IMG/VR virus record: IMGVR_UViG_3300033067_000326 | Coordinates: 1 to 40,418 of that record | Direction: 5' to 3' (one strand) | DNA from: a virus | Lineage: Duplodnaviria; Caudoviricetes | DNA length: 40,418 nucleotides | Shown here: piece after piece, positions 30,914-40,418 of the stretch | How the letters are laid out: the number at the start of each line of letters is the position of its first letter | Numbering within the stretch: the stretch's first letter is position 1 | Position numbers and translations under genes: made by a program | Notes under the pieces: generated by a model | The model's database searches: none | Seen by the model: only the letters and a program-made list of their open reading frames with translations | Told to the model about the DNA's origin: nothing

Positions 30914-31369
30914 ATGTGGTATAACCGAGTTGTATCGGACTTAGGACAAATTCCTGCGTTCATTGATTACTACGATAAAGAGTTAATTTCGGCCAAGTCC
31001 GAAATTGCGATTCGTGGAAATGTTGAACGTGGGGTTAGTAATCTTCCGGGCCTAACTGAACATAGATTCAACCAACTACAAGAAATTGAAGCGATCTTGA
31101 ACTATTTAAATATTCAGTTGCGAAAAATTCGAACTAAGCATTTCAAAAAGTATCTCGAAGGTTACGCTAGAGCGTTAACTAGTAGAGATGCTGAAAAGTA
31201 TGTGGACGGCGAAGACGAAGTGGTTGATTTTGAAACCATCATTAACGAAGTGGCGCTATTACGAAATAAGTGGTTAGGTGTCATGAAAGGGCTTGAGAGC
31301 AAGAACTTTATGCTAGGGCATGTGGTTCGACTTAGAACAGCTGGGATGGAAGACGTCACCATATCATGA
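30914..31369 (+). CDS. uvsY: Recombination mediator UvsY
   Basis: Coiled coil with KKYLEGY.RALTSRDAEKYVDGE and ..KGLESKNFML..VV.LR.AG; near uvsX. Confidence 0.75.
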   Translation: MWYNRVVSDLGQIPAFIDYYDKELISAKSEIAIRGNVERGVSNLPGLTEHRFNQLQEIEAILNYLNIQLRKIRTKHFKKYLEGYARALTSRDAEKYVDGEDEVVDFETIINEVALLRNKWLGVMKGLESKNFMLGHVVRLRTAGMEDVTIS

Positions 31370-31614
31370 GCTATAAAGAACACGCTAAGGAATTACTTGA
31401 AGAATTTTATTTGTGTGTTAAAGCAAAGCCAAAGCATAACTCTGTTGATTTGCAATTAGAAAAAGATCAATGTGAAAAATTGGCAGGTCGTCTAAATAAT
31501 TTGTTGGCATGGGGGGACGATAGTGAAATTGAAGAAGCATGCCAACAATTTGAACCCCGTTTGAAACGTCTTAAAGAAAAGCTAGTAATTGAAGTATTAA
31601 CACATGGCATTTGA
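31366..31614 (+). CDS. Hypothetical protein
   Basis: 82 aa, ATGA coupling. Confidence 0.65.
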   Translation: MSYKEHAKELLEEFYLCVKAKPKHNSVDLQLEKDQCEKLAGRLNNLLAWGDDSEIEEACQQFEPRLKRLKEKLVIEVLTHGI

Positions 31615-32356
31615 TAACGCATATAGCAGCCATGACCATAGTCGGTATATTTTAGATCTACTTTACGGTTACGACAGCTTCCTTGATAGCCTCGGTGTTA
31701 TTGCAGACTTTGGATGCGGTGCTGGGCTAGACATTGGATGGTGGGCAACCTTAACAACTAGGGAAGATCCGCCGGAGCCCCGGAACTACTTGGTGTACGG
31801 TGTGGACAGGGATATACAGCAAGTAGATCCCTCAGTGAAGTCTATGCCCAACGTTAAGCTGATCCAGGCAGATTTTGAACTAGACATTTCTATTCCTAGA
31901 GCATGTGACTTACTATGGAGTCACGATAGTTTTCAGTATTGCACTAATCCATTACATACGCTAAATCTTTGGAACCAGCAAATGAACGACAATGGTATGC
32001 TGGTCCTGAGCATTCCGCAGAGTACGTATTACTCATATGACAGGTTGCAGAATGTTAGCCACAGTCAGGTCTACTTTAACCACAATATTGTTGGGTTGAT
32101 GTACATGCTTGCAGTAAATGGGTTTGATTGTAAGGATGCATATTTTTGCAAAAATGCAAATGATCCATGGATCTATGCTGCGGTTTATAAAGCAACGCAG
32201 CCCATGGACCCAAAAACAACTAGTTGGCATACGCTAGCAGAAATGAATTTAGTAAACGATTCAGTTAAAGAAAGCCTGCAAAAGTACAACTATGTTAAGC
32301 AAGACGATCTGCTAGTAACGTGGCTTGACAAAGACTATCGCAGATTAAAAGAGTGA
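31604..32356 (+). CDS. Class I SAM-dependent methyltransferase
   Basis: IADFGCGAG motif I, YGVDRD, DLLWSHDSFQY..NP, NGMLVLSIP. Confidence 0.8.
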   Translation: MAFDNAYSSHDHSRYILDLLYGYDSFLDSLGVIADFGCGAGLDIGWWATLTTREDPPEPRNYLVYGVDRDIQQVDPSVKSMPNVKLIQADFELDISIPRACDLLWSHDSFQYCTNPLHTLNLWNQQMNDNGMLVLSIPQSTYYSYDRLQNVSHSQVYFNHNIVGLMYMLAVNGFDCKDAYFCKNANDPWIYAAVYKATQPMDPKTTSWHTLAEMNLVNDSVKESLQKYNYVKQDDLLVTWLDKDYRRLKE

Positions 32357-32359
32357 CGC

Positions 32360-32388
32360 TTGACGCAAACTAGACTAGATGCTATACT
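32360..32388 (+). promoter_or_regulatory. Sigma70-like promoter of first tRNA unit
   Basis: TTGACG-17 nt-TATACT. Confidence 0.75.
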
Positions 32389-32438
32389 TGCGGCTTAGAG
32401 AGAGAGATAGATAAGTATATCTAGATAGGTTGCTTTGT

Positions 32439-32511
<73 letters not shown>

Positions 32512-32538
32512 CAAAGCAACTTACCTCTCAAATAATGT

Positions 32539-32613
32539 CTGGCGTTAGTATAATGGATAATACAGCAAGCTTCTACCTTGCGAATGTGGGTTCGATTCCT
32601 GCACGCCGGACCA
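32539..32613 (+). tRNA. tRNA-Arg(UCU)
   Basis: CTGGCGT/ACGCCGG, GCAAG-CT-TCT-AC-CTTGC, TTCGATT loop, CCA. Confidence 0.9.
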
Positions 32614-32617
32614 AAAT

Positions 32618-33769
32618 ATGTTACACTCACTTGAACAAAATCCAAAATTAGGTTACTACACTGTAGGTACCAACGCTACCCCAATTTACAATAAACTAGA
32701 TGCCCTTGCAATTGCTGAAAAGACAGGTGCAGTAGTTAATTGGAATTTCAACAGTCATGCTTTCGGCAGTCTTGATTGGACTAAAGAGCCCGAAACTGAT
32801 ATAGACACTTTTTACAGAATACGTGCGCAACAGTTGCGCGATCGTTATGACTACTTGATACTGAACTACAGTGGCGGAGTAGACAGCACAAACGTATTGT
32901 ATTCGTTCCTGAAAAATGGAATACACTTAGATGAAGTGGTAGTTCGTCATCCCGAATCGGCCCTGCGAGATGTTAACATACATACTGACAGCAGCGGCGC
33001 AGCTAATACTATCTCCGAATACGAATACGCAGTAAAACCTCGACTGCAATGGATTAGGGACAATTATCCTAACGTAAAAATAACTGTACATGACTACTTT
33101 GACAGTATGGTTAATGAGGAAATTGATGAGTCATGGATTTATCTAGCTCGTGACTTTTTTCACCCGGGGCTAATTAAGAGATATAGCAATTTAGGGCTCC
33201 GCAGCATGCTAGATCTATACGACAAAGGGAAGACAGTAGGAATCATATTTGGGATAGACAAGCCCAGATTGTATTTTGATCACACTAGCGACAAGTACTT
33301 CTCTTACTTCTTAGACATTGTTGCAAACACTGCAATTAGTGAAAATGGGCAGTACAGTAACATTGCAACTGAGTTCTTTTACTGGACACCCGACTTACCC
33401 GAGATGGTAGTAAAACAAGCGCACATGCTCAAGAAATGGTATACCGCAAATCCGCAGTATAGATCATTGATTGAACTGTATAAGCCTATTGTAGGAGATT
33501 CGCTTGCGTTTGTTGAACGCAGCATTGTGGCTCCTATTGTTTACCCATCAACGCCTAATGTATTTCAATGCGACAAACCGTTTAACTCGATCTTCTCGGA
33601 ACACGATGCATGGTTCTTTGAGCACCACATAGACTCAAAGCCCGGGCAAGTTTGGAGAAGTGGTGTAAATGAACTGCTAAATAATTTTTCAAAGCACATA
33701 CGATTTAATCCCAACGGAAGCCCAGCAGGAGTTAAACTGTTCTGGAGCAAACTATACTCTCTACAATAA
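32618..33769 (+). CDS. PP-loop (adenine nucleotide alpha-hydrolase-like) ATPase, paralog 1
   Basis: LNYSGGVDS; shares GYY.VG, DW..EP, RA.Q.R..YDY, G.DK, EFFYW.PD.P, KQAH with ORF 34598. Confidence 0.75.
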   Translation: MLHSLEQNPKLGYYTVGTNATPIYNKLDALAIAEKTGAVVNWNFNSHAFGSLDWTKEPETDIDTFYRIRAQQLRDRYDYLILNYSGGVDSTNVLYSFLKNGIHLDEVVVRHPESALRDVNIHTDSSGAANTISEYEYAVKPRLQWIRDNYPNVKITVHDYFDSMVNEEIDESWIYLARDFFHPGLIKRYSNLGLRSMLDLYDKGKTVGIIFGIDKPRLYFDHTSDKYFSYFLDIVANTAISENGQYSNIATEFFYWTPDLPEMVVKQAHMLKKWYTANPQYRSLIELYKPIVGDSLAFVERSIVAPIVYPSTPNVFQCDKPFNSIFSEHDAWFFEHHIDSKPGQVWRSGVNELLNNFSKHIRFNPNGSPAGVKLFWSKLYSLQ

Positions 33770-33770
33770 T

Positions 33771-34430
33771 ATGAAAATCGAAAAAACAATTGACCAATGG
33801 AACACCATGTACCCAGCAGGTGCATTCTTAGTTGAACAGAACATCCCCTTAGTCTTGCCCGAGTTTTGCAAATATGCAAGCGTCTACGGATACTGTTTTG
33901 GTGACACTACTATCGAAATTGATGGAAAATTGCACAACCTAGAAAAAGGTCAGTACTTTGGGCTATTTGTCAATCAGACTTGCAAAGTAGCAACCGCTGA
34001 CAAATGCTTTATTGCTGTGCGTCTTGGATACAAGGTACAAAACCAAATCGGATGGATCGAAGACAAAGGGCGACTAACGTACATTGATGGATGCAGCGAT
34101 AGTCTTTTAGTGTATCCTGCCCGTTTAGGCGATTCGAGCTTGAACTTATTGTATTTTCCTGCTAACATTAACCAATCGTTCCACACACACCCTAGCATTA
34201 GGTTAGGATGTGTAGCAAGTGGTTCGGGATTTAGCGATGCAGGGGATGCTGGCGGAGTTACAGAGAACACGTTATCTGAGGGTGTTGTATTTTGTTTAGA
34301 AGAACAAGAGCGCCATAGATTCCGCACAAGCAATTCGCCGATGACGGTTATTGCATTCCACCCAGACGGTGATTGGGGCCCAACAGACCATAATCACACT
34401 ATGCTAAACCGTACCTATATTCAAAAGTAA
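33771..34430 (+). CDS. Cupin-domain protein
   Basis: QSFHTHPSIRLG, E..RHRFRT, VIAFHPDGDWGPTD.NH.M. Confidence 0.7.
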   Translation: MKIEKTIDQWNTMYPAGAFLVEQNIPLVLPEFCKYASVYGYCFGDTTIEIDGKLHNLEKGQYFGLFVNQTCKVATADKCFIAVRLGYKVQNQIGWIEDKGRLTYIDGCSDSLLVYPARLGDSSLNLLYFPANINQSFHTHPSIRLGCVASGSGFSDAGDAGGVTENTLSEGVVFCLEEQERHRFRTSNSPMTVIAFHPDGDWGPTDHNHTMLNRTYIQK

Positions 34431-34453
34431 GTTTTGTTGAGATAAATATCTGT

Positions 34454-34492
34454 ATGATCCATTTTACTATTAACTACATACGAATATCCTAA
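34454..34492 (+). CDS. Putative Ile-rich regulatory micro-ORF MIHFTINYIRIS
   Basis: 5 nt after ATAAATA (34442-48); Ile codons ATC, ATT, ATA, ATA; ends 11 nt before tRNA-Ile(UAU). Confidence 0.45.
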   Translation: MIHFTINYIRIS

Positions 34493-34503
34493 TCAGCAGA
34501 TTT

Positions 34504-34595
34504 AGGAGCGTAGTTTAACGGTAAAACAGCGGATTTATATCCCGTGTGCAACAGATAATTGGCCAATGTCGGTTCGACTCCGGCCGCTCCTACCA
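34504..34595 (+). tRNA. tRNA-Ile(UAU)-like with 22-nt variable region
   Basis: AGGAGCG/CGCTCCT, D stem GTTT/AAAC, GCGGA-TT-TAT-AT-CCCGT, GTCGG-TTCGACT-CCGGC, A-CCA. Confidence 0.8.
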
Positions 34596-34597
34596 AT

Positions 34598-35860
34598 ATG
34601 CAACCCACCCTTTTAACATATAGCAGACAAGATAAGTTTGGATACTATCTTGTTGGTAACGACATTAAGACTTACAGTAAAGTAGAAGCAGTTGAAGTAT
34701 CAAACAGATTGCGTAAACCTTTTAGATGGGTGTTCAACGAGGATGTGTTTTTAAACTTTGACTGGAAGACTGAGCCAACTGAATCCCTTGATGAGCTTTA
34801 CACACAGCGGGCACACCAAATAAGAGAGCAATACGACTACATTGTTATTTGGTACAGCGGCGGTGCTGACAGCCACAATGTGTTACAGAGTTTTATTAAG
34901 AACAACATTTTCGTAGATGAAATTGCACAATTTCATAGCCACGATGGAGACAAGACCTGGGACTCGTACCTAAACGCCGAAGTAGAGAAAGTGGCAATAC
35001 CAGTAACCCAAGAATTGCTAAATTCTATGCCTGGGACCAAGCACAGGGTAGTGGACTTAACAGAATTAGTGGGTAACTTATACAACACAGGCACCAATGC
35101 ACATGACTTCATATACATGTCCAACAAAGTGTTTGCCCCGAACCAGCTAGCTAGAACCTACCTACGTGAACGAATTGCAGACTATCAAGAGCTAATTAAA
35201 AGCGGAAAGAGAGTTTGCTTTGTTTGGGGTGCAGATAAGATCCGTGTCCACCAAGCCGGTGATCGCTACTATGTACACTTCTTGGACTTCATTGATGCAT
35301 ACGGTGTTGGTCCGAGAACACAGCAGCTAAACCGTGATGGGGAGTTTGACGAGTTGTTCTACTGGAGCCCGGATTGTCCAAAATTGATTGCAAAGCAAGC
35401 CCATTTAGTTAAGAACTACCTTCAACATCCCCCAGCAGACGAAATAAACAGCAGATGGCTATCTAATTCGCTCGAAGAGACTTGCACACAATGGACTGGT
35501 CGTCGTATACTACTTCAAAGCAGTCCAACACCAGGTACTGAAGATCAAAAGATGTTCATAACACGGGACGGGTTACACAGGATAATTTATCCTCACTGGG
35601 ATCCGGACACGTTTACGCTAGGGAAACCGGCGAGCAGCATCTTTACTCCTCGAGACGGGTGGTGGCTAAAAGACTCCAATGGGGAATTCCAAAAGAAGTA
35701 CCTAGCGGGAATAGTTAAACTTAGACAGATTCTTGGACTACCCGGAAAGACTCCGGCTAGCATGGACTATGGGATCGAATCAATGATGACAATAGCCAAT
35801 GGCGACATGTCGACACTGAATGTTCGCCCAATGTACAGCCCAAGATATTGGTTAAACTAA
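34598..35860 (+). CDS. PP-loop ATPase, paralog 2
   Basis: IWYSGGADS; start moved to ATG 34598 because the TTG at 34559 lies inside the tRNA. Confidence 0.75.
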   Translation: MQPTLLTYSRQDKFGYYLVGNDIKTYSKVEAVEVSNRLRKPFRWVFNEDVFLNFDWKTEPTESLDELYTQRAHQIREQYDYIVIWYSGGADSHNVLQSFIKNNIFVDEIAQFHSHDGDKTWDSYLNAEVEKVAIPVTQELLNSMPGTKHRVVDLTELVGNLYNTGTNAHDFIYMSNKVFAPNQLARTYLRERIADYQELIKSGKRVCFVWGADKIRVHQAGDRYYVHFLDFIDAYGVGPRTQQLNRDGEFDELFYWSPDCPKLIAKQAHLVKNYLQHPPADEINSRWLSNSLEETCTQWTGRRILLQSSPTPGTEDQKMFITRDGLHRIIYPHWDPDTFTLGKPASSIFTPRDGWWLKDSNGEFQKKYLAGIVKLRQILGLPGKTPASMDYGIESMMTIANGDMSTLNVRPMYSPRYWLN

Positions 35861-35895
35861 TTTGTCAAAAAGATAAATAAATTTGTCGACAGAGG

Positions 35896-35924
35896 TTGAC
35901 ACAAAAGGTAAATAAATATACAAT
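35896..35924 (+). promoter_or_regulatory. Strong sigma70-like promoter with embedded late promoter
   Basis: TTGACA-17 nt-TACAAT; ATAAATA at 35912-18. Confidence 0.8.
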
Positions 35925-35931
35925 AGGACTT

Positions 35932-36078
35932 ATGATGCAAAACACATTTAATCATTCGCTAAAACAACAACAGCCCGGATTAGGCATGTCAGCCTATTGG
36001 TCTTTGTTTGCGACGATTAATAGTGATCGCGCACCAGAGATTCGACCAGGGTTCCAAGAAGGAGCAGGTTACGCATAA
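35932..36078 (+). CDS. Putative attenuator leader peptide (48 aa)
   Basis: ATG 7 nt after the -10 box; codons 39-42 (CCAGGGTTCC) complementary to the 5' arm of the downstream terminator. Confidence 0.65.
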   Translation: MMQNTFNHSLKQQQPGLGMSAYWSLFATINSDRAPEIRPGFQEGAGYA

Positions 36079-36099
36079 CGCATAACAAGCACCCAAAAA

Positions 36100-36137
36100 G
36101 GAACCCTAGGATTAAAAACCCTAGGGTTTTTTGTTTT
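36100..36137 (+). terminator. Intrinsic terminator (attenuator)
   Basis: GGAACCCTAGG(36100-110)/CCTAGGGTTTT(36120-130) then TTGTTTT. Confidence 0.85.
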
Positions 36138-36148
36138 GTAAAGGAATT

Positions 36149-36307
36149 ATGAAGAAGATTGATTTAAAAAAACGTATGCGTGAAGTGAGGTTCGTTACTG
36201 AGAATGTACTAACCCCAGAACAACGTACAAAGTTGATTCAGGATAAGTTAGATCGTGCTCAAGTCGAGTTTGACAAACGCAAACAATTGAATCGAACTTA
36301 CGCATAG
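36149..36307 (+). CDS. Small basic protein (52 aa, absent from ORF track)
   Basis: AAGGA RBS; MKKIDLKKRMREVRFVTENVLTPEQRTKLIQDKLDRAQVEFDKRKQLNRTYA. Confidence 0.7.
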   Translation: MKKIDLKKRMREVRFVTENVLTPEQRTKLIQDKLDRAQVEFDKRKQLNRTYA

Positions 36308-36313
36308 TTTAAC

Positions 36314-36477
36314 AGTGTTAATAAGACCTATATGGCCAGGTAACGAGGACCTGAAAGAACACTATAATAATCTTTAAACGGGCGGACAGGATACATGAAT
36401 GGCATGGTGAGAACGTGCCGAGTAAGACTCCTGGTTAGGGTATTGACCCTAACATATCCAGCAGCAATGCTGGGTAT
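36314..36477 (+). ncRNA. Putative structured RNA (four adjacent stem-loops)
   Basis: AGTGTT/AACACT, CAGGA/TCCTG enclosing TGGCAT/GTGCCG, GTTAGGG/CCCTAAC, ATATCCAGCA-GCAA-TGCTGGGTAT. Confidence 0.5.
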
Positions 36478-36579
36478 TCTAAAACGTGCTAGATGAACAA
36501 TATATATATTTGAACCATATAATTATAGATCTTGCAGCACCGGTTAATGCAAGTTCGCCCTAGCACGTTTTAGAATACC
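36473..36579 (+). repeat. Perfect 20-bp inverted repeat enclosing 67 nt (putative RNA closing stem)
   Basis: GGTATTCTAAAACGTGCTAG (36473-92) / CTAGCACGTTTTAGAATACC (36560-79). Confidence 0.85.
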
Positions 36580-36650
36580 TTATGGATGAATATGAAACTA
36601 TCCTTTTGACGGGTAGTTTGTCCGGACCATTGCGCCGGAAACCATAGGGG
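36578..36650 (+). ncRNA. Putative three-way-junction RNA
   Basis: CCTTATGG/CCATAGGG closing stem; AAACTATCC/GGGTAGTTT and TCCGG/CCGGA hairpins. Confidence 0.45.
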
Positions 36651-36658
36651 ATATAATT

Positions 36659-36733
36659 GGAAGTATAGCAAAGTGGTAATGCACTACCTTCATACGGTAA
36701 CTATCGCTAGTTCGAATCTAGCTACTTCCACCA
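36659..36733 (+). tRNA. tRNA-Met(CAU), elongator-type
   Basis: GGAAGTA/TACTTCC, CTACC-TT-CAT-AC-GGTAA, CCA. Confidence 0.85.
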
Positions 36734-36738
36734 AATTT

Positions 36739-36822
36739 GGATGTTCGACGCAGTTGGAGAGGCGTGGCTGGCTGTAACCCAGTTCGTAAAGTGAGTAAGT
36801 TCGAATCTTACAACATCCACCA
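36739..36822 (+). tRNA. tRNA-Tyr(GUA)
   Basis: GGATGTT/AACATCC, GCTGG-CT-GTA-AC-CCAGT, long variable region, CCA. Confidence 0.85.
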
Positions 36823-36830
36823 AGTTTTAT

Positions 36831-37090
36831 TTCGTTGTAGTTTAGAGTGAGCAAAAAGGTAGCATTGAGTAGGTGAGATAATACATCTAGTAGCACAAAG
36901 TAGATAACAATCGCGTAGGCTGTAAAAAACCAAACACTGTGAGCCCGGGAAGTGCGGGACAGGTTGAAATGTGCAAAAAGTGGGATAAGGCATTGAGGGG
37001 ATGTGAGAATATTGTTCCGGAAGAACACAGGCACCCAGCATACGCGATTTTAGGCCTGAGACGTAGGTTCGAGTCCTACTAACGAAGCCA
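36831..37090 (+). ncRNA. 260-nt tRNA-shaped RNA with large D-region insertion and 21-nt anticodon loop
   Basis: TTCGTTG(36831-37)/TAACGAA(37080-86), G-CCA, T arm GTAGG-TTCGAGT-CCTAC, stem CAGGC/GCCTG. Confidence 0.7.
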
Positions 37091-37091
37091 G

Positions 37092-37240
37092 TTTTGAGAT
37101 AGACGGCACGATTGAGTCCCATTCTGCATAGCATACCGGCTGGTATGTGACAGCGCCAGTTTGCAGCTTATGGTAGTTTAAACTCTTGTGTACGAGACAA
37201 TCCAGTGAGTCCACCCAGGTGGATAGTTGGGCTCTCAAAA
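37092..37240 (+). ncRNA. Putative structured RNA between tRNAs
   Basis: TTTTGAGA/TCTCAAAA closing stem; nested GATTG/CAATC, CCAT/ATGG, CTGCA/TGCAG, GCATACC/GGTATGT, TCCAC/GTGGA. Confidence 0.55.
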
Positions 37241-37249
37241 ACCTTTTAT

Positions 37250-37324
37250 GGGCTGCTAGTATAGGGGGAATTACACTAGCCTTGCACGTTAGTAATCGGG
37301 GTTCGAGTCCCCGGCGGTCCACCA
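37250..37324 (+). tRNA. tRNA-Ala(UGC)
   Basis: GGGCTGC/GCGGTCC with G3:U70, CT-TGC-AC loop, CCA. Confidence 0.92.
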
Positions 37325-37332
37325 AACAATTT

Positions 37333-37410
37333 GCCACAGTAGCTCCAATCGCGTAGAGCAGTAGCCTGAAAAGTTATGTGTTGCTGGTTCGAGTCCAGCC
37401 TGTGGCACCA
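37333..37410 (+). tRNA. tRNA-Phe(GAA), D loop lacks canonical GG
   Basis: GCCACAG/CTGTGGC, CT-GAA-AA loop, D loop CAATCGCGTA, CCA. Confidence 0.9.
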
Positions 37411-37416
37411 AATTAA

Positions 37417-37492
37417 GCCGTGGTAGCTCTCTGGGTAGGGCACCTCACTGTCGATGAGACCTAGGCGGGTTCGATTCCCGTCCACGGCGCCA
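37417..37492 (+). tRNA. tRNA-Asp(GUC)
   Basis: GCCGTGG/CCACGGC, CT-GTC-GA loop, G73, CCA. Confidence 0.9.
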
Positions 37493-37499
37493 AGTTTAA

Positions 37500-37578
37500 C
37501 TGTGTGTAATGTCAGCCAGGTCAGACGGCCCTCTTTGGAAGTGGGAGGCCGCAGGTTCGAATCCTGCCACACAGACCA
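37500..37578 (+). tRNA. tRNA-Pro(UGG)
   Basis: CTGTGTG/CACACAG, TT-TGG-AA loop, CCA. Confidence 0.88.
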
Positions 37579-37583
37579 ATAAT

Positions 37584-37675
37584 GGAAAGTAATGCAGCGG
37601 GGTTGGTCCTGCGACTAGTCTTGAAAACTAGGTTCTCAGAAATGGGATGGGGTTCGACTCCTCTGCTTTCCGCCA
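37584..37675 (+). tRNA. tRNA-Ser(UGA), 8/4-type fold
   Basis: GGAAAGTA/TGCTTTCC 8 bp, T stem GGGG/CCTC 4 bp, CTAGT-CT-TGA-AA-ACTAG, long V arm, G73, CCA. Confidence 0.85.
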
Positions 37676-37681
37676 AAATAT

Positions 37682-37756
37682 ACCGGGTTAGCTCAGTGGT
37701 AGAGCAGCGGCTTGATAAGCCGTTGGTCGCAAGTTCAAATCTTGCATCCGGTACCA
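37682..37756 (+). tRNA. tRNA-Ile(GAU)
   Basis: ACCGGGT/ATCCGGT, GCGGC-TT-GAT-AA-GCCGT, CCA. Confidence 0.92.
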
Positions 37757-37761
37757 ATTAT

Positions 37762-37837
37762 GCCCCTGAAACCTTTAATGGATGAGGTCCTGTTTTGTAA
37801 GCAGGAGAAGTCGGTTCGATTCCGGACTGGGGCACCA
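37762..37837 (+). tRNA. tRNA-Thr(UGU), atypical
   Basis: CCTGT-TT-TGT-AA-GCAGG; A at position 8, T-T mismatch in acceptor, imperfect T stem; CCA. Confidence 0.75.
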
Positions 37838-37844
37838 AACATAT

Positions 37845-37919
37845 TCCAGTGTAGCACAGCGGTAGTGCAGTTGACTGTTAATCAATTGGTCGTAGGTTCG
37901 ATCCCTGCCACTGGAGCCA
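37845..37919 (+). tRNA. tRNA-Asn(GUU)
   Basis: TCCAGTG/CACTGGA, CT-GTT-AA loop, G73, CCA. Confidence 0.93.
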
Positions 37920-37924
37920 ATTTT

Positions 37925-37998
37925 ATCTCGGTAGTGTAATGGCAGCATAGCAGTCTCCAAAACTGTTTGTGGGGGTTCGAGTCCCTCCCGGGATGCCA
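37925..37998 (+). tRNA. tRNA-Trp(CCA)
   Basis: ATCTCGG/CCGGGAT, CT-CCA-AA loop, G73, CCA. Confidence 0.92.
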
Positions 37999-38007
37999 AG
38001 TTTTTGT

Positions 38008-38085
38008 TGGGGTATAGCTTAGTCTGGCCTAAAGCACTAGTCTTTGAAATTAGTATCATTGGTTCGAATCCAATTACCCCTGCCA
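38008..38085 (+). tRNA. tRNA-Gln(UUG)
   Basis: TGGGGTA/TACCCCT (U1-U72), CT-TTG-AA loop, G73, CCA. Confidence 0.9.
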
Positions 38086-38138
38086 TATATTTGTTAACTT
38101 CTAGTAGTGAATAAATATTTTTCTACTGTGAGGTTTCA

Positions 38139-39749
38139 ATGAACGTATGTGTTATAGGTGCAGGATTCACGGGAATCTTAACTGCATTAATTCTAAAGAA
38201 AAATTGTCCCAGTGTAACTATTACACTAATTGACAGCAACAAAGAACCAAAGAATTTCGGATTTGGTGAGAGTGCGCCACCGGCGTTCATGACATGGCTG
38301 CTTAACTCACTAAAAGTTGCACCCGAAGAAAGATCGCAATGGGTCACCGATTGGTTAATTGGTACAAACAGTACATTTAAGTACAACCTAAAGTGGCAGA
38401 ATTTTACAAGTGCATCCGACGACGGATATGTAAGTGGTGTACGTGACATGCCTGATTTTAGGGCTATACTTGACGGAAGTCCGGTAGGTCACGGGATGGA
38501 CATTAACATCGCAAATCCAGACAACAATGCATATCGCATGTTTGACCTCTGGTACGAACTGTACAAGGCAGGGCACAGAAAGTTAGAAGACTTTCAACCT
38601 GACACCAATGACTTGTACTGGCTTTCTAAGAAAGGCAGAGTTCCTTACTACGAAGGCAGGTTTGTGTTTGACGTAATGAGCAGTCACATTAACTCATTTG
38701 AAGTGTGTGAATGGCTTAGAAACAAATACGGAGATATCATTGATACTGTTGTAGTAGACACTATCAAAGACATTGAGTTTACATCGTCTGGGGCGATTAA
38801 AGAATTGCACCTAGAGTCGGGTAATACCACAACAGCAGATTTTTACATTGACTGTACTGGTTTTAAGCGGTTAGTAGGTAACAAAGCCAACTTGCCATTT
38901 AAGCGTCCGGATACTGACATCTACCATGATTCGGTTACTGTAGTGGCAAACAGCTACACGGAAAACTTTGAGCAAGAGATGTTACCGCAAACAGTTGGAT
39001 ACGGAATGGACTATGGTTGGACCTTTTCTATTCCGTTGCTAAACAGAAAAAGTTACGGATACACTTACAATTCCCGGGATCTAACGCCCGACCAGGCACT
39101 GGAGGAATTGGCAACACTAAGCGATCCAGCAACTAGAGTCATTGAGCCTATACATTTAAAGTGGACTCCTGGAGGGTACACCACATCGTGCAAGGAAAAC
39201 TTTGCACTAGTTGGGCTAAGTGCAGGATTCGTTGATCCGTTTGATGCTAACACAATTGGTCTACAAGTAATACAGCTAAACAATTTAGTTGAATTTTTCA
39301 ATGACACAACAAAGCAGCATCTACAAGATCGTTACAATGAAGAAACATGGGGCTTGTTTAGCTCTGTGGCAGAGCGTGTCGAATATCATTTTGGACTAGC
39401 ACCAAGATCGACGTCACCGTATTGGGAACGTAATCATCAAGTTGCAAAGCACAAACGTTTAGAAGATGCAATCTTTGAAACGCTAAATGATTACAAGCAT
39501 TCTCCAGATGCTGAACGCCGTGGTCGATTTATACCGTATCGCAGTGCATTGTATCTAAGTGAGTTAGTGTACTTTGACATTGACATGAGCAGACGTTGCA
39601 GAAACTCTAATCCGTCGCTGTTAATGTTTGCCAAGGACTTTTTCAAGACCAATGCAAACTTAAACAGGGCAAGAGCAGAGTTATTTCCTACATTGTTGCA
39701 GTGGTACAAGATGAAAGGCATTGACTTAAAGCAATTAAACGGTCTATAA
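38139..39749 (+). CDS. Divergent flavin-dependent halogenase family protein
   Basis: 536 aa; IGAGFTG, FGFGES, STFKYNLKW, YIDCTGF, WTFSIP, FVDPFDANT; GAGG RBS and ATAAATA at 38111-17. Confidence 0.8.
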   Translation: MNVCVIGAGFTGILTALILKKNCPSVTITLIDSNKEPKNFGFGESAPPAFMTWLLNSLKVAPEERSQWVTDWLIGTNSTFKYNLKWQNFTSASDDGYVSGVRDMPDFRAILDGSPVGHGMDINIANPDNNAYRMFDLWYELYKAGHRKLEDFQPDTNDLYWLSKKGRVPYYEGRFVFDVMSSHINSFEVCEWLRNKYGDIIDTVVVDTIKDIEFTSSGAIKELHLESGNTTTADFYIDCTGFKRLVGNKANLPFKRPDTDIYHDSVTVVANSYTENFEQEMLPQTVGYGMDYGWTFSIPLLNRKSYGYTYNSRDLTPDQALEELATLSDPATRVIEPIHLKWTPGGYTTSCKENFALVGLSAGFVDPFDANTIGLQVIQLNNLVEFFNDTTKQHLQDRYNEETWGLFSSVAERVEYHFGLAPRSTSPYWERNHQVAKHKRLEDAIFETLNDYKHSPDAERRGRFIPYRSALYLSELVYFDIDMSRRCRNSNPSLLMFAKDFFKTNANLNRARAELFPTLLQWYKMKGIDLKQLNGL

Positions 39750-39750
39750 T

Positions 39751-39825
39751 ACTTCCTTAGCTCAGCGGTAGAGCAGTACGTTGACATCGTAAAGGTCAGT
39801 GGTTCAATCCCACTAGGAAGTACCA
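39751..39825 (+). tRNA. tRNA-Val(GAC)
   Basis: ACTTCCT/AGGAAGT, TT-GAC-AT loop, CCA. Confidence 0.92.
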
Positions 39826-39834
39826 ATAAAGTAG

Positions 39835-39863
39835 TTGACAGTTATTGAACTGTTTGCTACAAT
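39835..39863 (+). promoter_or_regulatory. Sigma70-like promoter
   Basis: TTGACA-17 nt-TACAAT with TG extension. Confidence 0.8.
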
Positions 39864-39870
39864 AGATACA

Positions 39871-39900
39871 TGTTAAGAAATTAACAAACGTTCTTTAAAA
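39871..39900 (+). promoter_or_regulatory. rrn-like boxB/boxA antitermination leader
   Basis: TGTTAA-GAAA-TTAACA hairpin then CGTTCTTTAAAA (boxA consensus TGCTCTTTAACA). Confidence 0.65.
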
Positions 39901-39917
39901 ATTTAAGTGAAAATTTT

Positions 39918-40003
39918 GCGACTGTGGTGAAATAGGTAGACACAAGAGACTTAAAATCTCTCGCTGTAATGGCGTTCCGGTTCGATTCCGGACAGTCGCA
40001 CCA
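39918..40003 (+). tRNA. tRNA-Leu(UAA)
   Basis: GCGACTG/CAGTCGC, AGAGA-CT-TAA-AA-TCTCT, long V arm, CCA. Confidence 0.93.
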
Positions 40004-40128
40004 TATACAAACATTCTTGACGGGGTGTGTGCCGGGCTAGAATCCGGTAACTATTTCGGTCTCCTGGCAGAGGCGAAAGTAGCAGTGTGCCAGCACTGTG
40101 GCGAAATTGAGAGTGTTTCTATATGGTG
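39999..40128 (+). ncRNA. Putative kissing-loop structured RNA
   Basis: Closing stem CACCATATA-c-AAACATTC / GAGTGTTT-c-TATATGGTG; three inner hairpins; loops CTGGCA and TGCCAG are complementary. Confidence 0.65.
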
Positions 40129-40155
40129 ATTTAATAAAAACAAAAACAAATTCAT

Positions 40156-40230
40156 GGAGCATTCGTCTATCGGTTAGGACATCAGGTTTTCATCCTGAGA
40201 AGAGGAGTTCGATTCTCCTATGCTCTTCCA
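40156..40230 (+). tRNA. tRNA-Glu(UUC)
   Basis: GGAGCAT/ATGCTCT, TCAGG-TT-TTC-AT-CCTGA, U discriminator, CCA. Confidence 0.88.
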
Positions 40231-40232
40231 AG

Positions 40233-40418
40233 TTTTGCTGACACAGGGTGCGAGTAATCGCTATGTGGCTAATGTTGTAGAATGAGCAGTGTCGCCTTAC
40301 CGCAGACAATAGTTAGTCTCTACCCTTGCAACGGCGAACGATTTAGTGCCTCATACTATCAATCGGGAGAGCATTACCTAAAACCCTAAGCAGGGCATCG
40401 ACAGTAAAGGCAGTTGCC
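40233..40418 (+). ncRNA. Putative structured RNA, may extend past window end
   Basis: AGGGT/ACCCT, GCGA-GTAA-TCGC, GGCTAATGTTGT/ACAATAGTTAGTC, possible TTTTGCTG/CAGTAAAG closure. Confidence 0.4.

Follow-up and report, generated by a model that had tools for sequence, protein, structure and literature searches.

A conserved leader open reading frame (ORF) and a two-state RNA fold, located upstream of the tRNA genes of an uncultured giant phage, probably act together to attenuate transcription of the tRNA array in a ribosome-dependent way. The window, that is the whole stretch of DNA which was analysed, is a 40,418-base IMG/VR record estimated to represent about 12% of a genome, and the leader lies on its plus strand, at 35896–36137. 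An attenuator layout had already been proposed for this site by a reading of the sequence alone; the layout stands because the comparative tests named in that reading came out positive, homologous leaders being found before tRNA arrays, with a frame that stays open while its peptide drifts and with covariation between antiterminator and terminator. The antiterminator, however, turned out to be longer than proposed, since it is a three-part helix, the apical loop of which includes the stop codon.

The family comprises at least 28 leaders, all distinct and all from uncultured giant phages, the window included, and the order promoter, frame and hairpin with T run is common to all 28; the contigs of the relatives reach 374 kb. 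Twelve distinct leaders, the window among them, were obtained by searching viral and metagenome contigs with the leader peptide and with ORF2, the first gene behind the putative gate, and 16 further, more divergent ones with a nucleotide pattern covering the last codons, which gave 116 stretches that were filtered for leader features. Pattern matches such as L096, L101, L106, L126 and L133 were rejected as chance occurrences devoid of leader, hairpin and T run; L049, scoring 35.5 bits with the covariance model of the family, is a doubtful divergent member and was excluded from the 28, and two weak partial matches in Flavobacteriia genomes, from a scan of genome contigs with the leader alignment, were taken as chance. 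The covariance model identifies exactly one copy in the window. The feature is regarded as above chance because it is conserved in relatives, and not because of its appearance in one sequence.

The window also encodes a T4-type large terminase, a single-strand DNA-binding protein and a UvsX-like recombinase, and a total of 17 tRNAs was detected in it by ARAGORN. Its terminase has 54% identity with those of the PA5oct-like Pseudomonas jumbo phages, which are the nearest isolates. Among 50,697 isolate phage records, blastn with the region 35500–36700 returned zero matches, and tblastn with the leader peptide only chance matches (E >= 6); an Rfam cmscan of 31000–40418, with E up to 1, yielded only tRNA-type and chance matches, none of them at 35896–36137. 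Just 5′ of the leader, a protein of 433 residues (34559–35860), which has no Pfam or PHROG match, contains the sequence YSGGADS, which we take to resemble the PP-loop ATP-pyrophosphatase motif; its homologues, with 38–43% identity, adjoin leaders in other contigs. The region upstream of the leader also comprises a tRNA-Ile with anticodon TAT (34504–34595), which is kept in relatives (L008:1323–1414, L009:2309–2400, L013:1358–1449) and whose 91–92 nt are an unusual length for an Ile tRNA.

The single elements on which the sequence-only reading was built, namely the promoter, the position of the ATG, the 48-codon ORF, the terminator and the bulged complementary segment, were all found again. The promoter (35896–35924, plus strand) is sigma-70-like, with TTGACA at 35896–35901, a 17-nt spacer and TACAAT at 35919–35924; it matches at 11 of 12 positions and is kept in relatives. 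It is one of three such 11/12 matches in the window, where the 17 sigma-70-like sites are no excess over the 17.0 expected from shuffles. The spacer carries TAAATAA; indeed, (G/C)TAAATAA directly 5′ of the -10 hexamer (35909–35918 in the window) is found family-wide, in leaders with and without a 5′ UTR alike, and in many leaders a second ATAAATAAA is located about 35 nt upstream. No other promoter of the extended form, with a TAAATAA-type spacer, was found within the window, and the motif may represent a protein-binding or promoter-class signature.

Two types of translation start are found behind this promoter. In the window, ATGATG is located at 35932, 7 nt past the -10 hexamer, and an ATG 6–8 nt after the -10, from which a leaderless mRNA is predicted, was recognised by eye in about 17 of the 28 leaders. 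About nine leaders, also read by eye, have the same promoter followed by a 5′ UTR of 45–55 nt with a Shine-Dalgarno site (AAGGA/AAAGAG), and so the leaderless start claimed for the window agrees with its own sequence but does not extend to the whole family. The occurrence of two unlike solutions for translation start argues that translation itself is selected. A small conserved hairpin (e.g., GGCAGCA-AUGG-UGCUGUC) opens Shine-Dalgarno-type 5′ UTRs, a few nt past the predicted start, in L031, L040, L104, L105, L136, L138 and L143.

The terminator is formed by GGAACCCTAGG (36100–36110), paired with 36120–36130 through a 9-nt loop; the T run comprises 36127–36132 and, after a G, TTTT ending at 36137, so that 3′ arm and T run together occupy 36120–36137. 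The program-made list of hairpins gave it on the minus strand only, the 9-nt loop of the plus strand being above the limit of 8. Its folding energy is -16.7 kcal/mol in the window and ranges from -15.1 to -19.2 kcal/mol in the family, with a T run following in 28/28. Codons 39–42 of the leader ORF contain CCAGGGTTCC (36046–36055), which is complementary to 36100–36110 with one bulged A at 36108; this segment is the 5′ strand of P1, the outer helix of the antiterminator, and the 5′ arm of the terminator, as the segment common to both folds, is its 3′ strand. When each leader was folded from 36 nt 5′ of the stop codon through the terminator loop, the 5′ arm of the terminator paired with the ORF segment in all 28, in a single irregular helix. 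In P1, GGGUUC(C) of the ORF, at codons about 7–10 before the stop, pairs with G(G)AACCC of the arm; the inner helices (36061–36093 in the window) are P2, a short middle stem, and the apical P3, which is GGUUAC:GUAAC in most leaders and holds the UAA stop codon (36076–36078 in the window) in its loop.

RNAalifold on plain MAFFT alignments recovered the terminator, but only six pairs of P1, and an alignment made with the covariance model was used because the P1 pairing shifts register between subgroups. In this alignment 77.5% of the cells pair, and ten of 20 pairs have changed on both sides, including eight of 11 in P1, a level reached by 0/500 shuffles, although shuffle counts are not probabilities here, owing to the relatedness of the sequences and to the fitting of the alignment to the structure; sliding the partner by 1–3 columns leaves 20–56% pairing. 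An alignment-free comparison, likewise inflated by relatedness, gave a binding energy of -17.1 kcal/mol for the ORF segment with its own arm versus -14.3 kcal/mol with the arms of other members, a difference obtained in none of 10,000 permutations. The variants of P1 include GGGUUCC:GGAACCC, GGGUCC:GGACCC and GGGGUCC:GGACCCC, as well as AGUUUCAUA:UAUGAAACC in L086; reading by eye shows two registers with respect to the reading frame (GGG UUC and G GGG UUC) and a synonymous GUU/GUC change that accompanies A/G in the arm. GGG, the rarest glycine codon of the phage (106/811), is retained at the P1 site. The two covariation tests and the register shift together are the reason why the pairing is taken as real.

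The antiterminator folds of the 28 leaders range from -21.0 to -31.6 kcal/mol (-25.0 in the window), and the minimum-energy fold of the full-length leader contains the antiterminator in 15 cases and, in the other 13, the terminator. If the competing strand is kept unpaired, the mean difference between the states is -2.9 kcal/mol (range, -7.2 to +1.4). For the 207-nt leader of the window, the fold has -59.6 kcal/mol (z -4.8) and contains the antiterminator, but the minimum-energy fold flips upon a 6-nt difference in the folded ends. Two folds that are nearly isoenergetic are the signature of a bistable element, whose outcome is decided by kinetics. In folds of the RNA preceding the terminator arm, no consistent upstream partner of the P1 strand, which could act as an anti-antiterminator, was found across the 28 leaders; a weak candidate was noted in the window and in L020.

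The small ORF and the approximately 12 tRNAs that had been recognised downstream correspond to ORF2, of 52 codons, and to 12 tRNAs detected by ARAGORN. The array, which that reading proposed to be gated, does lie on the same strand; the unit behind the terminator begins with ORF2 and a structured RNA, and a separate promoter-like site precedes the last three tRNAs of the window. ORF2 (36149–36307, plus strand) has an AAGGA ribosome-binding site at 36141–36145 and starts 12 nt past the T run. A homologue follows the terminator in 27 of the 28 leaders; the family consists of proteins of 50–60 residues with a core like TLTxEQxxxLIxxKxERA, to which no name is given by Pfam, PHROGs or the Atlas, the latter returning unnamed clusters only, at 0.80–0.82. 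As the ribosome-binding site lies only 4–35 nt past the T run in those 27 leaders, ORF2 can hardly have its own promoter. A scan for sigma-70-like sites, which does not cover phage-specific promoters, found none on the plus strand between terminator and first tRNA in 3/3 relatives scanned; the window itself has a promoter-like site at 36494–36523, which is not conserved. A TATAAT at 36363–36368 is conserved, with a poor -35.

Between ORF2 and the first tRNA, an RNA of about 340 nt (36308–36655, plus strand) is conserved above the neighbouring genes; 21 of its 79 predicted pairs have changed on both sides among six sequences, and it has no match in Rfam. Several of its hairpins show compensatory changes, e.g., CCAGGU-AACGAGG-ACCUGG, and UAUUCUAAAAC:GUUUUAGAAUA forms a long-range helix. 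In L104 this RNA directly follows the terminator, without ORF2. The tRNA array (36659–38085, plus strand) includes the 12 ARAGORN tRNAs and one tRNA-like match from Rfam. A tRNA array is present downstream, on the same strand and 120–1200 nt away, in 21/21 distinct leaders with readable surroundings, and all the 32 tRNAs detected in G001 are behind the leader, as are all those detected in some other records. The arrays of the relatives are close to complete, whereas the window stops within its tRNA region. In the window three more tRNAs follow after 39751 (ARAGORN), and a strong promoter-like site ahead of them (TTGACA-17-TACAAT with TG before the -10, 39835–39863), 55 nt 5′ of tRNA-Leu, suggests that some of the tRNAs may be independent of the gate.

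Other elements were noticed in the tRNA region. A gene for a flavoprotein similar to tryptophan halogenases is found at 38139–39749 (Pfam PF04820, 2.5e-47). The tRNA-like match at 37584–37671, between tRNA-Pro and tRNA-Ile, was missed by ARAGORN and scores 37.4 bits with the Rfam tRNA-Sec model, below the cut-off of 47; it is probably a long-arm tRNA. The gap of 427 nt between tRNA-Tyr and tRNA-Ala (36823–37249) has no plus-strand ORF of 60 codons or more, and a metatranscriptome contig (36853–37046) and pieces of relatives map to it; it may code for another stable RNA.

Public RNA contigs from two metatranscriptome runs of one study contain pieces that are 100% identical to the window, at a depth of 2.5–4.3: 35965–36153 and 36167–36337 in run X16, and 36167–36382 and 36853–37046 in run X15, with zero cover over 35400–35911 in these runs; neither the ends nor the levels of transcripts can be read from such contigs, and carry-over of DNA is possible. 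The piece 35965–36153 passes the T run by only 16–21 letters, less than the 31 letters of the bridging rule. High-depth pieces of relatives spanning the terminator are found in a third RNA run.

The leader ORF (35932–36078, plus strand) has 48 codons, from the ATGATG predicted to be leaderless to the stop TAA. Its frame is open in all 28 leaders, with lengths of 47–63 codons, and the other two frames in none; insertions and deletions preserve the frame, and among the first twelve leaders peptide identity to the window ranges from 41% to 98%. The dN/dS ratio is 0.26–0.89, below 1 in all 22 pairs, while the three codon positions differ almost equally (0.378, 0.375 and 0.427), unlike in a normal protein gene, which we ascribe to the constraint imposed by the RNA structure on synonymous sites. 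Codon adaptation is low, although not extreme (0.650 vs 0.742 +/- 0.068, 7.6th percentile). The dN/dS values, together with residues that are invariant or nearly so family-wide (W, D-R, E, E-G, G-Y), would also suit an ordinary small phage gene that has a promoter and a terminator to itself and whose 48-residue product is what matters, whose helix serves mRNA stability or translation control, and behind which expression occurs by unregulated leak-through or from other promoters. This explanation is unlikely: the helix is built on the 5′ arm of the terminator, with which it shows covariation and is isoenergetic, all of which would be needless for a stabilising hairpin; the distance from the T run to the ORF2 ribosome-binding site leaves no room for a promoter; the leader heads a tRNA array in every case where the surroundings can be read; and the peptide has no match to any family.

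The residues kept in the leader peptides are W, (S/N)DR(T)PE and EGxGYA. The last motif, followed by the stop, was demanded by the search pattern for 16 of the 28 leaders, so that its conservation, and that of the apical hairpin which it encodes, is partly ascertained and only partly informative; the conserved W and S/N-D-R-T-P-E suggest that the peptide itself may matter. If the leader were an arrest switch like TnaC or SecM, acting through the nascent peptide, W ... DRTPE ... EGxGYA-stop would stall the ribosome at or near the stop codon, perhaps depending on a ligand or factor, and thereby set the RNA fold. The conserved residues are indeed located 26, 17–13 and 6–1 positions before the stop, within the length of the exit tunnel, and all 12 leaders obtained independently of the pattern have TAA as their stop. 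However, besides the ascertainment, the C-terminal conservation mostly overlaps P1–P3, L017 ends in REGWDG and still keeps the switch, and the likeness to known arrest peptides lies in the pattern of conserved residues; a switch of this kind is thus considered quite improbable.

The use of 18 of the 20 amino acids, pointed out in the sequence-only reading, is unremarkable for the window; a near-complete set is a property of the family. The window leader uses 18 kinds (no Cys or Val), a number reached in 35% of 48-codon windows from the phage's own genes, and 36 kinds of codons, reached in 0.5% of such windows, yet in 10–18% of random unbiased frames. Across the family, all 20 amino acids are present in 16/28 leaders (by chance in 1.5–5% of gene windows and 3–9% of random frames) and at least 19 in 25/28 (12–24% of gene windows); without the last 14 codons, 12/28 still have at least 19 kinds (chance, 0.6–2.1%). 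Complete sets occur in several subgroups, with the rare residues at differing positions, the members being related. The subgroup of the window is the weakest case, with 15–17 kinds in the presumed sensing zone; the window has 17, a number reached by about 20% of gene windows of equal length.

The use of nearly every amino acid suggests that the quantity sensed would be general decoding capacity and not one amino acid. A classical attenuator of the trp/his type would sense a single amino acid, here glutamine, at codons 12–14 (CAA CAA CAG), and would form a 1:2 hairpin through which an untranslated leader terminates; KQQQ is retained in the subgroup of the window, and in one predicted fold of the window GCCCGGA (35972–35978) can pair with the P1 5′ strand. 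Such a sensor is very unlikely in view of the other subgroups, which have AKQA and no Gln run, of the inconsistent upstream pairing of P1 across the 28 leaders, and of the many specificities of the downstream tRNAs. A small non-coding structured RNA with an incidental frame, about 200 nt long and with its 3′ end at the terminator, would account for the strong structure of the whole leader, the near-flat codon positions and invariant synonymous sites such as GAUCGC, but is barely credible for a frame that alone is open in all the leaders, is preserved by indels and, in about nine members, has a Shine-Dalgarno site instead of the leaderless start.

The direction in which the attenuator would work is inferred from the helix geometry and from general ribosome footprint sizes. 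The strands of the antiterminator emerge before the 3′ arm of the terminator and the antiterminator is at least as stable, and no consistent upstream anti-antiterminator was found in the predicted folds; for both these reasons, a naked, untranslated leader should allow read-through. With a ribosome that is still over about 15 codons short of the stop, the antiterminator would likewise stay and the polymerase would read through. A ribosome with its A site within about 15 codons of the stop would instead cover or unwind the P1 5′ strand and free the 5′ arm, so that the terminator could form and the transcript would end near 36132–36137. A ribosome covers about 12–15 nt on each side. When placed on the stop codon it would occupy P2 and P3; the P1 5′ strand, 21–30 nt upstream of the stop, is just beyond the standard footprint of that ribosome, and its exclusion of the P1 helix would be a steric matter. 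The terminator begins 22 nt past the stop codon and should be free to form with a ribosome at the stop, because it lies outside the ribosome's reach.

Such a device would time the ribosome against the polymerase, with termination if the first ribosome keeps pace and read-through if initiation or elongation lags, and under slow decoding more of ORF2, of the structured RNA and of the tRNAs would be expressed. A general sensor of decoding is a fair reading of the family sequences, and a modest one for the sequence of the window. It may be tentatively proposed that freshwater giant phages use the leader as a decoding test: when decoding by the host falters, a tRNA set, a small protein and a structured RNA would be supplied on demand, as an answer to tRNA-targeting defence. 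The triggers could include tRNA cleavage by anticodon nucleases, tRNA loss upon host shut-off and starvation; the link to anticodon nucleases is a conjecture.

The reasons proposed for the presence of tRNAs in phages are the matching of codon usage, the replacement of degraded host tRNAs and the escape from tRNA-cleaving defences, and it is still debated why and when phages use these genes. If the attenuator is real, phage tRNAs would be a regulated response to decoding speed and not a constant supply, and the leader would provide a simple reporter for the insults that trigger the array. Leader-peptide attenuation would also be extended to viruses and to RNA genes, and an unnamed small protein and a structured RNA of about 340 nt would be co-regulated with tRNAs.

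Among the known systems closest to this layout are the attenuators of enterobacterial amino-acid operons (trpL, hisL, leuL, thrL, ilv and pheL). The phage leader shares with the trpL/hisL type a short translated leader, an intrinsic terminator, an antiterminator that uses the 5′ arm of the terminator and, if it works as proposed, the choice of the fold by ribosome position. Unlike these, it has neither a run of one regulatory codon (QQQ is found in one subgroup only) nor a consistent 1:2 hairpin in the predicted folds; the antiterminator 5′ strand is inside the ORF, the stop codon is in the apical loop, and the target is a phage tRNA array and not a biosynthetic operon. In the pyrBI/pyrE attenuators, a close ribosome blocks the terminator. 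The outcome is set by the distance between ribosome and polymerase, as it would be in the phage leader, but the sign would be opposite, because 22 nt separate the stop codon from the hairpin and a ribosome placed on this codon should spare the terminator and destroy only the antiterminator. Prevention of terminator hairpins by a closely coupled ribosome is described in one report (PMC5021804).

Ribosome-mediated attenuators that sense antibiotics, vmlR (PMC9226507) and msrD (10.1101/2021.11.29.470318), resemble the phage leader in having a leader ORF and a terminator switch which is reported to open upon ribosome inhibition; they are triggered by particular drugs and regulate resistance factors, whereas the phage leader has no known drug link. 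The nearest analogue in spirit, likened here by description, is the mycobacterial whiB7 uORF, in which stalling is believed to cause antitermination and which is activated by the loss of many genes concerned with amino acids, tRNAs and synthetases (Poulton et al., bioRxiv 10.1101/2023.06.02.543512). As described there, it is also a broad sensor of translation trouble, its response being set by the uORF's coding sequence; however, it is enriched in alanine and controls a bacterial transcription factor, whereas the phage leaders tend to an even, near-complete set of amino acids and precede tRNA genes.

In the full-text literature, where subscription journals are thinly covered and older phage work may be missed, no paper was found that deals with phage tRNA genes controlled by a leader peptide or by attenuation. 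If the phage leader is indeed an attenuator, its logic is that of known ribosome-mediated attenuation, and what would differ from the textbook design is the lack of a single regulatory codon, the default of read-through and the choice of viral tRNA genes as the target.
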